Virus record (IMG/VR): IMGVR_UViG_2728369393_000007
Length of the DNA stretch: 64,000 nt
Source: a virus
Taxonomy: Duplodnaviria; Heunggongvirae; Uroviricota; Caudoviricetes
Reading direction: 5' to 3' (one strand)
How positions within the stretch are numbered: position 1 is the stretch's first letter; each line of letters opens with the position of its first letter. Below, piece after piece: positions 27,001-30,000 of this stretch. A program made the position numbers.

Positions 27001-30000
27001 ATTATATGAATAACATAATGATTTTTAATGTATTTTTGTAATTTACTCTCCTTCTGACATGGAAGTTGTTCGTTCAAAATCTTATTAAATATCAAGTTGT
27101 TAAATCTGGTAAGTCATTATTGGTCAAAATAAAATCATTATCCGATTTCAATTTTGTCCCACTCCCGCTCGCGACTGTCCCTATAATGCGCCGCCATTGA
27201 ATCAGATTTATGTCCAAGAAGACGTTGTGCAAACTTGTAGCCAATCTGGTTCCGATATAGCCTCGCGGACAGACTACGTAGTTCATGAAATGTCGGTGGG
27301 TCTCCATCAAACGAGATCCCGGATGCATTTCGCGCCTTTGTTAAATACCGTGATACTGTGGCTGGAGAAAGTGGTTCGTGATAGGTTGATGCGATTATTG
27401 TTTCACTGCTGCTGGCCTCCCTGCATTTCTGTAGTGTATCAACCAGTGAGATGTCGAGTGCGTCAATGGTTAGAGCCAGCGGAATGGCAATTTTGGCTCC
27501 TGTTTTACTCTGTCCAATGTGAAGATGACCATCGTTTATGTCTGACCACTTCATTCTGCACAAATCGCCCACTCTCTGCCCTGTAACGACAGCTAAATCC
27601 ATTGACAGCCTCAGCCAGATGGGGAGGTGCTCAGCAGCATGGTAAATAGCGACATACTCATTAGCTGTCAGCCTTGAGCGCCTTACTTCTGACTTTGCTG
27701 CACGGGTTGTTGTTACTGGATTCGTTGCCACATGCCCCTCGGCTATTGCCCCTCGAAAAACGTCAACAAGGGTTGACCTGATTACTCTTGCGGAAACCGC
27801 TTTACCTTCTGCGACGTAGGTGTTTAGCATTGCTGCCACCTCTTTCGTTGATATGTCAGTGAGCGGTTTGTCCGGCAATTTTCTTCGAATTGCCCTGATT
27901 TTGCTGGCGTAGTCGAGTAATGTTTTCGGCTTGCTCCCCCTCTAGCTGAGGATTGTTTCATATCGATCAAGCCACGTATGAAGAGTGATTGAGTCAGTGC
28001 CTTTAACCCTGTCCAGCAATGATTCGTGCCCACTTTCGCTGAAAAGCTCAATGTTGGTGTGAATGCTTCTGAAATTGCTACTCTTCTGTCTCTTCCCAGC
28101 CCGAACTCTTTTTTCGTCCTCGGGTCAGTGTGTAGTAAGACCGCTGCAAATCCTGCGTGCTGACGGGAAGTGGGAAAATATTGGCGAAATGAAGTAACCC
28201 GATAGCTTCACAAAAACCGGAGTCCGGCTCCGGTTTTTGTTGTCATGTACGGGGGATGTCTGTTAGGAATAATTAGATAGGTTTATTTTGAAGGTTGAAA
28301 TGTATGTTATCGCCCTCTTCTATAAATTTGAGATGTTCATGGAATTCTTTAACCAGAAACCTGACTTCGCCTGATAATCGTGTTTTATCCTCTGTAAGGG
28401 ATGCTGCTGTTCACTCTGATAGCGGGACGCAAGTAACGGTTGGCAACAGAACATATCGTGTTGTGGTCACTGATAATAAGTTTTGCGTTACAAGAGAAAG
28501 TTATAGTGGTTGTTTTACTAATCTGTTGCACAGGTTGGGATGGCCTAAGGGAGAGATTAGCAGAAAAATTGAGGCTATGCTGAATACATCGCCAGTGAGC
28601 ACGACTATAGAAAGAGGCTCTGTTCATTCGAACAGACCTGATTTACCTCCAGTGGATTATGCGCAGCCGGAGTTACCTCCAGCGGATTATACTCAGTCAG
28701 AGTTGCCGAGGGTTAGCAACAATAAATCACCCGTGCCAGGTAATGTTATTGGTAAAGGTGGTAATGCTGTCGTGTATGAAGATATGGAAGATACAACAAA
28801 AGTGTTGAAGATGTTTACTATATCTCAAAGCCATGAAGAGGTGACAAGCGAAGTTCGTTGTTTCAATCAGTATTATGGTTCCGGGAGTGCAGAGAAAATA
28901 TATAATGATAATGGAAATGTTATTGGTATTAGAATGAATAAAATAAATGGGGAATCTCTTTTGGATATTCCATCATTACCAGCACAAGCTGAACAGGCTA
29001 TTTACGATATGTTTGACAGACTGGAGAAAAAAGGAATTCTTTTTGTTGATACAACAGAAACAAATGTTTTATATGATCGTATGAGAAATGAATTTAATCC
29101 AATAGATATATCATCTTATAATGTTTCTGATATTTCATGGAGTGAACATCAAGTCATGCAATCTTATCACGGAGGAAAGCTGGATCTTATTAGTGTAGTA
29201 TTAAGTAAGATATAATATTTTTATCCAGATATATTAGTTGCAATAATGTTTATGGATTTATTTGTTAAGGGGGTTTTGATATGTTACCAACAAGTGGTTC
29301 TTCAGCAAATCTTTATTCATGGATGTATGTATCAGGAAGAGGTAACCCTTCGACTCCGGAATCAGTAAGTGAGCTTAATCATAATCACTTTCTTTCTCCT
29401 GAATTACAAGATAAACTTGATGTTATGGTCTCTATATATTCATGTGCCAGAAATAATAATGAGCTTGAGGAAATTTTTCAAGAGCTAAGTGCTTTTGTAA
29501 GTGGGCTGATGGATAAGAGAAATAGTGTATTTGAGGTGAGAAATGAAAATACTGATGAGGTTGTCGGAGCGCTGAGGGCGGGAATGACGATAGAGGATAG
29601 GGATAGTTATATCAGGGATCTTTTTTTTCTGCATTCATTGAAAGTAAAAATTGAGGAAAGTAGACAAGGCAAAGAAGATTCGAAATGTAAAGTTTATAAT
29701 CTGCTATGTCCGCATCACTCTTCAGAGCTATATGGTGATCTACGAGCAATGAAATGCCTCGTGGAAGGATGCAGTGATGATTTTAATCCTTTTGATATTA
29801 TTAGGGTACCAGATCTTACTTACAACAAAGGATCTTTACAATGTGGATGATTAGAGGCCTGTGAGCCTGTTTAGGATTCTGTGTAAATGCCTTTTCTTAA
29901 AAGTGACCGTCAAGACGGTCATCAAACTCGATAATAAAGCGGCTCATTGCCATTCGCCAGTCCCTTAACGGCATTGTCCATTTCTGTGACGCGGCCTGGA

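Follow-up and report, generated by a model that had tools for sequence, protein, structure and literature searches.

The window, the whole stretch of 64,000 nucleotides analysed here, is almost identical to E. coli CFSAN004176, an O145:H25 strain cited by name in Nakamura et al. 2021 (PMC8112680). It is the effector locus of PPompW, described in the text of that paper as a defective lambda-like prophage at ompW with nleA, nleH, nleF, nleG and espM. A further prophage in the window, prophage 2 (int at 36464-37750), is a Stx2a phage, which according to the same text sits in the ompW prophage via a yecE-derived 21-bp attB. The host prophage at ompW has its own int beside ompW, which is cut by IS600 and lies about 6 kb before the start of the window, as seen in CFSAN004176. 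The features around the integrase relic are listed below.

25160-26482, minus strand: nleA, directly downstream of int, attP and sib and on the same strand
26866-27141: complete attP-form site
27138-28126, minus strand: integrase pseudogene, equivalent to lambda/HK022 Int residues 28-356
28126-28199, plus strand: 3' end of a side tail-fibre gene, its last 74 bp, with 92% identity to the true end of the gene (23845-23918)
28213-28265: tail-fibre terminator region, after the 74-bp fragment
28304-29215, plus strand: nleH1-2, after the tail-fibre fragment and with nleF next

A preliminary description of this DNA had a lambda-type integrase pseudogene stranded between nleA and nleH, and the gene positions and the PGAP annotation both agree with it. 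The order of the fossil is tail fibre, nleA (minus strand), sib, P arm, core, P' arm and int' (minus strand). The tail-fibre end with its terminator (28126-28265) is duplicated from the true gene end at 23845-23982, and position 28126 is also the start of the nleH1-2/nleF segment. A further partial tail-fibre end is found at 24620-24762, upstream of the nleA block, and tail-fibre 3' ends recur at each segment boundary. The window also contains a 906-bp inversion (48277-49182), with no flanking inverted repeats that explain it.

The pseudogene was delimited by translation, alignment, Pfam and PGAP annotation. Three-frame translation of the minus strand at 27138-28220 gives a product that is colinear with lambda Int and has the C-terminus ...WDKIEIG*, and the frame-corrected product aligns to the lambda Int chains in PDB over residues 28-355 (E 1.7e-149), as expected from the colinearity and the ...WDKIEIG ending claimed earlier. 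Pfam identifies a truncated Arm-DNA-bind_1 domain along with Phage_int_SAM_1, Phage_int_M and Phage_integrase. Arm-DNA-bind_1 (residues 1-64) is incomplete, covering only profile positions 33-69 of 74, and the catalytic domain PF00589 is matched at E 2e-38. All six catalytic residues (R212, K235, H308, R311, H333 and Y342) are still encoded in the alignment. The lesions were mapped by nucleotide alignment to the int-xis regions of HK022, lambda and strain E105, combined with coordinate mapping, and are given here together with the longest remaining reading frame.

28124-28126, minus strand: D28, the first codon kept, at which homology begins in the alignment
28125/28126, minus strand: blunt illegitimate junction between int and the tail fibre, with at most 1 bp of sequence in common
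Between 28064 and 28065, minus strand: 1-bp deletion that shifts the frame at about codon 50-51 (GAAGC-ATT, against GAAGCTATA in HK022)
27942-27944, minus strand: in-frame TAG derived from GAG; the int genes of HK022 and E105 have GAG (Glu) and lambda has Ser
27138-27878, minus strand: longest residual ORF, 246 aa with a TTG start, with the catalytic domain complete and the core-binding domain in part

Codons 1-27 are missing and tail-fibre DNA stands in their place; everything upstream of D28 has been replaced, including these codons, xis and the region where pI sits in lambda. In a strain without the fossil, tail-fibre homology begins at 28126 by BLAST. The remnant has neither a start codon nor an uninterrupted reading frame, and PGAP annotates the corresponding interval of CFSAN004176 as 'tyrosine-type recombinase/integrase; frameshifted; internal stop; incomplete; missing N-terminus'. 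The preliminary description was right about the frameshift, the TAG and the start at 27138. The end that it gave, 28110, has to be moved to 28126, and the N-terminal loss that it put at about 20 codons is real and comes to 27. Homology searches of the 64-kb window detected no second lambda-family int, and tblastn with the lambda and HK022 Xis proteins detected no xis of the lambda/HK022 type there (best E 0.05). The tRNA and Rfam scans of 20-38 kb showed nothing relevant as an att-associated RNA gene. The pseudogene is a dead, non-functional integrase relic, and in this respect it is ordinary.

In hundreds of E. coli genomes the fossil is already listed by RefSeq as a pseudogene. The int segment recurs, with at least 99% identity, in about 445 complete genomes, most of which are O157:H7; this count refers to identity of the segment, the identity of the lesions having been checked in one O157:H7 copy. 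In that copy, from strain JEONG-1266, the junction, the deletion and the TAG are the same, with 1 mismatch and 0 gaps in 1062 bp. These common lesions, along with the roughly 445 genomes that have the segment, suggest that the relic was formed once and was then inherited or spread with the prophage. That the frameshift and the stop are sequencing or assembly errors in an intact gene is next to impossible: the closest assembly, CFSAN004176, does have many 'frameshifted' phage genes, but the lesions are identical in the independent O157:H7 assembly, the sequence is 99.9% identical and gapless in hundreds of genomes, and the 5' truncation is structural. A sister copy is found on a stcE virulence plasmid, where it has the same nleA-attP-int' order, is 95% identical and has decayed differently; this copy (a partial match at 95%) is a pseudogene too. 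Variants of the PPompW effector locus with truncations at 28064-28067 or at 28112 also occur. A literature search for 'ECs1813' gave no matches.

The pseudogene protein is HK022-like and not lambda proper, with approximately 82-86% amino-acid identity to HK022 as against 67-71% to lambda Int. The tblastn values are 85.7% to HK022, 86.6% to some Stx1a phages and 71% to lambda, and the uncorrected window sequence gives 82% to HK022 and 67% to lambda. The claim that its family differs from that of the prophage 2 integrase is borne out, since the latter has Arm-DNA-bind_2 and the fossil Arm-DNA-bind_1, and the two are 28% identical over 92 aa only. The int of the ompW prophage, outside the window, is unrelated in sequence to either of them and provides the third of the at least three integrase lineages that had been proposed for the region. 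Determinants of the lambda/HK022 core specificity reportedly include positions 99, 282, 283, 287 and 319 (Dorgai and co-workers, 1995). The residues at these positions are as follows.

Position 99: D in the fossil, N in lambda, D in HK022
Position 282: P in the fossil, S in lambda, P in HK022
Position 283: A in the fossil, G in lambda, K in HK022
Position 287: R in the fossil, R in lambda, K in HK022
Position 319: R in the fossil, E in lambda, R in HK022

At these specificity positions the fossil Int looks like a hybrid of lambda and HK022. It also has 17 unique replacements (among them G32K, E153G, D324Y and G347E) at positions that are invariant in lambda and three HK022-type Ints, compared with 0-2 in intact Ints. 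The pN/pS of the fossil versus HK022-type ints is about 0.20, similar to that of lambda versus HK022 and with no clear sign of neutral decay, suggesting that most of the divergence is older than the inactivation; dS (Jukes-Cantor) is saturated against lambda.

The 246-aa C-terminal ORF might be expressed, and its product could then be a recombinase or topoisomerase that works independently of the arm sites, or a dominant-negative partner for resident integrases of the HK022 type. Its frame has no interruption between the TAG and the natural stop, the RKHRH-Y residues are kept, pN/pS is not elevated, and the sequence is 99.9% conserved across O157:H7 and O145 strains. This identity between strains comes from the descent of the prophage as a whole from a recent common ancestor, since the adjoining non-coding DNA is conserved to the same degree. 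The gene has lost its native promoters, pL and the pI that lies within xis, and a consensus scan of the minus strand at 27880-28300 found no promoter-like sites; the number of sites in the scan was not above that in shuffled sequence, and none was upstream of the residual ORF. The TTG start is without supporting evidence, and the 17 unique substitutions fall at positions invariant in lambda and HK022-type Ints. Expression of this ORF as a working protein is therefore improbable.

The preliminary description had proposed a search beside the gene for an attP-like core and arm-type sites. A complete attP-form site is indeed present at 26866-27141, and it aligns element by element with lambda attP except in the core.

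26866-26907: hairpin, by alignment homologous to lambda 27.53-27.57 kb, an element that we take to be tI/sib, downstream of int
26915-26956: P arm with arm-type sites predicted by alignment, P1 CAGGTCACTAAT at 26915-26926 and an inverted P2 at 26947-26956
27048-27068: attP core CTCCTTC-TGACATG-GAAGTTG (CTCCTTCTGACATGGAAGTTG) from the alignment, with the overlap TGACATG
27051-27065: 15-bp common core CTTCTGACATGGAAG, common to the attL and attR of O111:H8 yfaT prophages (see below)
27090-27141: P' arm with sites predicted by alignment, an IHF-like H' at 27090-27102 and P'1 to P'3 at 27109-27141

All of the predicted arm-type sites, the IHF-like site and the core are present at 26915-27141, with the same overlap between P'3 and the int stop codon that lambda has. 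Both arms are of the phage type, the left one corresponding to the P arm of lambda and of the O111:H8 attR, and the right one to P' arms. To judge from these elements, the site is an unrecombined P-O-P' attP, and not an attL or attR.

Three other assignments were considered for this region and ruled out. The lambda attB is not the cognate site, as the core differs from the lambda 15-bp sequence GCTTTTTTATACTAA, and the fossil core is not the HK022 core, as these sequences differ too. The stretch 26854-27037 has matches in BL21(DE3) and many other strains at attR adjoining ybhB; these matches are the P arms of lambda-type prophages, and the stretch is not chromosomal attB-lambda DNA.

A third functional prophage end, that is, the active int/xis/att set of a separate excisable element, had been named in the preliminary description as the outcome that would speak against a remnant, and was to be recognized by an intact ORF with a cognate xis and an att end. 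An att site with all of its predicted arm-type sites does adjoin the gene, and the catalytic residues are all encoded, but the gene has lost 27 5' codons and carries a frameshift and a TAG, there is no xis in the window, and the att site is in the unrecombined attP form. There is also no prophage body between att/int and nleH, and no promoter-like site upstream. A functional end is very improbable on these grounds.

The common core leads to the DUF1175 gene, which we take to be yfaT in K-12 nomenclature. With a 104-bp query across the core, many genomes are 100% identical over 26972-27065 and then continue into a DUF1175 gene; at least eight of the 100% attR matches, among the matches listed, lie inside DUF1175 genes. 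The gene order in O111:H8 strain 2009C-3675 is NleG, nleA, P arm and core, a 3' fragment of DUF1175 and an alpha-2-macroglobulin gene. The other junction, in O111:H8 strain 1074-2, has yfaA, DUF1175, core, P' arm, int and xis. By BLAST, 25063-27065 is 97.9% identical to the O111:H8 attR side, with the last 94 bp at 100%, and 27051-28138 is 85.4% identical to the attL-int side. The two matches overlap exactly at 27051-27065, that is, over 15 bp. The common core has one C/A mismatch to attL, and 11 bp of it, TGACATGGAAG, are identical in all three sequences.

The cognate attB is accordingly predicted to be the 3' end of the DUF1175 gene (yfaT). The label 'lambda-type' given in the preliminary description is appropriate for the lambda/HK022 family and not for lambda proper, the relic being HK022-like with a yfaT core instead of one for the lambda attB. 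The sharing of the core with both the attL and the attR at yfaT suggests that the relic derives from a phage that carried nleA, of which it was the integration module, and that it does not mark the end of a prophage. An intact Int of the same lineage was sought in several collections. In complete E. coli genomes there is nothing full-length between 87.3% and 99% nucleotide identity, there is none among 5.8 billion proteins (the best intact match is 87% identical), and there is none in phage GenBank records (best 86.6%). A scan of IMG/VR with the exact core-plus-P' 24-mer returned 12 loci, and 12/12 are the same fossil. With no intact member of this exact Int lineage, the claim that the Int and the core are cognate is made from their adjacency only.

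The best explanation, with a probability of about 85%, is that the relic is the attP and int module of an nleA-carrying lambdoid phage with a yfaT-targeting Int of the lambda/HK022 family, kept in its vegetative order. nleA, attP and int would be the integration and cargo end of this yfaT-specific phage. Its whole genome may have recombined into the ompW prophage lineage without use of the yfaT-type attP, perhaps by Campbell-type exchange within the tail-fibre 3' region or by way of a phage-phage hybrid. A later deletion, with its ends at int codon 27 and the tail-fibre 3' end, would have removed the phage body. Three lesions killed int: the illegitimate junction, with loss of codons 1-27, xis and pI/pL, the 1-bp deletion, and the change of GAG to TAG. 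Since the host prophage is at ompW via a different integrase, the yfaT-type attP was never used for the present insertion. The relic probably has no function now beyond that of a homology patch, and possibly that of an orphan att substrate.

One observation speaks against the vegetative order, in that the identity to the O111:H8 prophage, about 98-100% up to the core, is 85% beyond it. Such a drop, placed precisely at the core, would fit a hybrid att made by Int-mediated exchange, for example P(1)-O-P'(2), at least as well. It is conceivable, if unlikely, that the locus preserves the junction of a tandem lysogen, in which the P arm and nleA come from one prophage, the P' arm and int from a second, and the core is the yfaT core common to both; later, most of the second prophage would have been lost by deletion, and the ompW prophage would have acquired the block. 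The middle junction of a dilysogen has exactly this form, P-O-P' and then int, and the O111:H8 identity, which is 97.9-100% to the left of the 15-bp core, changes sharply there to 85.4% on its right side. Such loci also commonly harbour tandem and nested prophages, according to the text of Nakamura et al. 2021 (PMC8112680). However, the supposed right end of the second prophage (nleH, nleF and attR) has the lambda core and a ybhB flank and not the yfaT core, and this origin still calls for one more transfer, into the ompW prophage. The plasmid sister copy (95%) has the same nleA-attP-int' order, which is simplest if the order was the phage's own. The locus is a relic under either origin, the vegetative order that we prefer or the tandem junction that is its main rival, and no active prophage end is involved.

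A second att fossil, detected by repeat finding and alignment, lies 3.4 kb downstream of the integrase relic and consists of the following elements.

30532-30809: lambda-type attR fossil, the whole block
30541-30584: sib-like hairpin, followed by P1 and P2
30729-30742: lambda core with one T fewer, GCTTTTTATACTAA, by alignment
30743-30809: B' flank, about 65 bp of chromosomal DNA from the ybhB side of the lambda attB, by homology

The second fossil abuts an IS256 remnant on its left. In BLAST searches the match to the attR-ybhB region of BL21(DE3) runs to 30809, and the match to lambda ends at 30746. The 30532-30809 block is at least 99% conserved in about 540 genomes. A living counterpart is found in the EPEC O111:H2 strain 12A, with nleA, P arm, lambda core, B' and ybhB. 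Bio-type aberrant excision from the lambda attB would produce such a fossil, and so would integration into a short chromosome-derived copy of attB followed by a deletion. The lambda attR fossil adds a fourth integration specificity to the region.

Taken together, the attP-int' relic, the fossil of a lambda attR with its ybhB flank and the recurring tail-fibre ends show that remnants of phages with at least four integration specificities (ompW, yfaT, lambda attB and yecE-type) are stacked in the ompW effector locus. Decayed integrases are routine in prophage-rich EHEC/EPEC genomes, and the pseudogene alone matters little. Its value is that of a historical marker, indicating that nleA was probably once carried by a yfaT-integrating phage with an HK022-like integrase. 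This bears on the accumulation of type III effector genes in such pathogens and on the entry of chromosomal att DNA into prophages, and the layering of att sites is a modest new detail within a known phenomenon.

More tentatively, the two att fossils may be layer markers of the assembly of the effector locus. Each block would have arrived as a whole phage, either site-specifically into a short chromosome-derived attB or by Campbell-type exchange at the tail-fibre 3' end, and its body would then have been deleted to the last 74-127 bp of the tail-fibre gene. The orphan attP may still be a substrate, because it retains all of the predicted arm sites and, over its P side and core, matches at 100% the attR of an O111:H8 prophage with intact int and xis. 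If so, a yfaT-type Int acting in trans could drive rearrangements between ompW and yfaT. If the layer markers are true, they would be direct sequence evidence for a capture mechanism left open in Nakamura et al. 2021 (PMC8112680). That paper has as its theme att DNA of chromosomal origin within the effector locus, and it states that the way attB sequences enter prophages is unresolved; its text has 0 matches for ybhB, ybhC and yfaT and mentions neither fossil.

HK022 has the closest characterised Int (82-86% amino-acid identity over residues 28-355), with the same domain order as the fossil. The arm-type sites of the HK022 attP and their layout (P1, P2, H' and P'1-3, with P'3 over the 3' end of int) are also the same as those of the fossil. 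The overlap is different, being GGGTGAA for HK022 (from the attL of E2348/69 at torS) and TGACATG in the fossil. The attB of HK022 is presumably torS/torT, whereas that of the fossil would be the DUF1175 gene, yfaT.

The int-attP-sib and b region of lambda has the same order and orientation as the fossil, namely tail fibre, leftward cargo gene, sib/tI hairpin, P, core, P' and int. The hairpin, P1 and P' sites at lambda 27.53-27.81 kb are nearly identical to those of the fossil, and nleA has the position and orientation of the ea genes of the lambda b region. In contrast, the Int proteins are 67-71% identical, the fossil core is unrelated to GCTTTTTTATACTAA, and the fossil is without xis.

WP_000533670.1 is the Int of yfaT prophages in O111:H8 and E105. 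It is intact and accompanied by xis, and the fossil is only 85% identical to it in nucleotides (83% in amino acids), with a P' arm that has diverged as well. The overlap and the C' core of these prophages are the same as in the fossil, the P arm and core of their attR are 100% identical to the window over 94 bp, and nleA is in the same place beside the P arm.

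Two comparisons point to past recombination at the nleA-attP interval and the decayed lambda/HK022-family integrase pseudogene (int') beside it. The window is 97.9-100% identical to the O111:H8 prophage in the DUF1175 gene yfaT (L011 and L012) on the nleA and P arm side, and 85.4% identical to it on the P' arm and int side, with the step falling exactly at the 15-bp core (27051-27065). Such a step is what an earlier exchange by Int, involving two phages with a common core, would be expected to leave behind. The integrase fossil is 99.9% identical to that of O157:H7 strains, but the 104 bp of P arm and core-proximal DNA at 26972-27075 is only 89.5% identical in O157:H7 and 100% identical to the O111:H8 attR, which points to patchwise recombination inside the nleA-attP interval.

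A ykgJ-like pseudogene, nleA, attP and int' are also found on the stcE virulence plasmid pZ1323HEC0108-2 (NZ_CP148375.1, 24.5-27.7 kb; L014). Over 638 bp the plasmid int' shares 95% identity with the window, and its decay differs. Since this plasmid holds nleA, attP and int' together, the block has moved onto a plasmid as well.

A second attachment-site remnant lies between an IS256 remnant on one side and the nleG/espM1 block on the other.

30532-30809: lambda-type attR fossil with a sib-like hairpin, P1 and P2, the core GCTTTTTATACTAA and ybhB-side chromosomal flank (about 65 bp)

About 540 E. coli genomes carry this fossil at at least 99% conservation, and the O157:H7 match to it breaks at about 30778. 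The searched text of Nakamura et al. 2021 (PMC8112680) makes no mention of it. That paper gives a yecE-derived 21-bp attB in the ompW prophage, the defective host prophage that carries the effector locus, as the integration site of prophage 2.

36464-37750, onward to about 52000: prophage 2, the Stx2a phage, which carries xisR and an integrase of 428 aa with an Arm-DNA-bind_2 domain

The CFSAN004176 assembly has two ORFs in place of a single stx2A. This assembly is otherwise near-identical to the window, where 906 bp with a DUF968 gene (48277-49182) is inverted relative to it. A search for inverted repeats flanking the inversion found none; either the strains themselves or just their assemblies may differ here.

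The 3' end of the side tail-fibre gene is present in three copies, two of which have an identical downstream terminator.

23776-23982: left edge of the block with an uncharacterised 180-aa ORF
24620-24762: left edge of the nleA block
28126-28265: left edge of the nleH/nleF block

Because every cargo block has one of these copies at its left edge, serial capture at one spot is suggested. Upstream of the effector locus, the tail-fibre gene also encodes collagen-like Gly-X-Y repeats in 33-nt units (23207-23401), a typical feature of side tail fibres in lambdoid phages.
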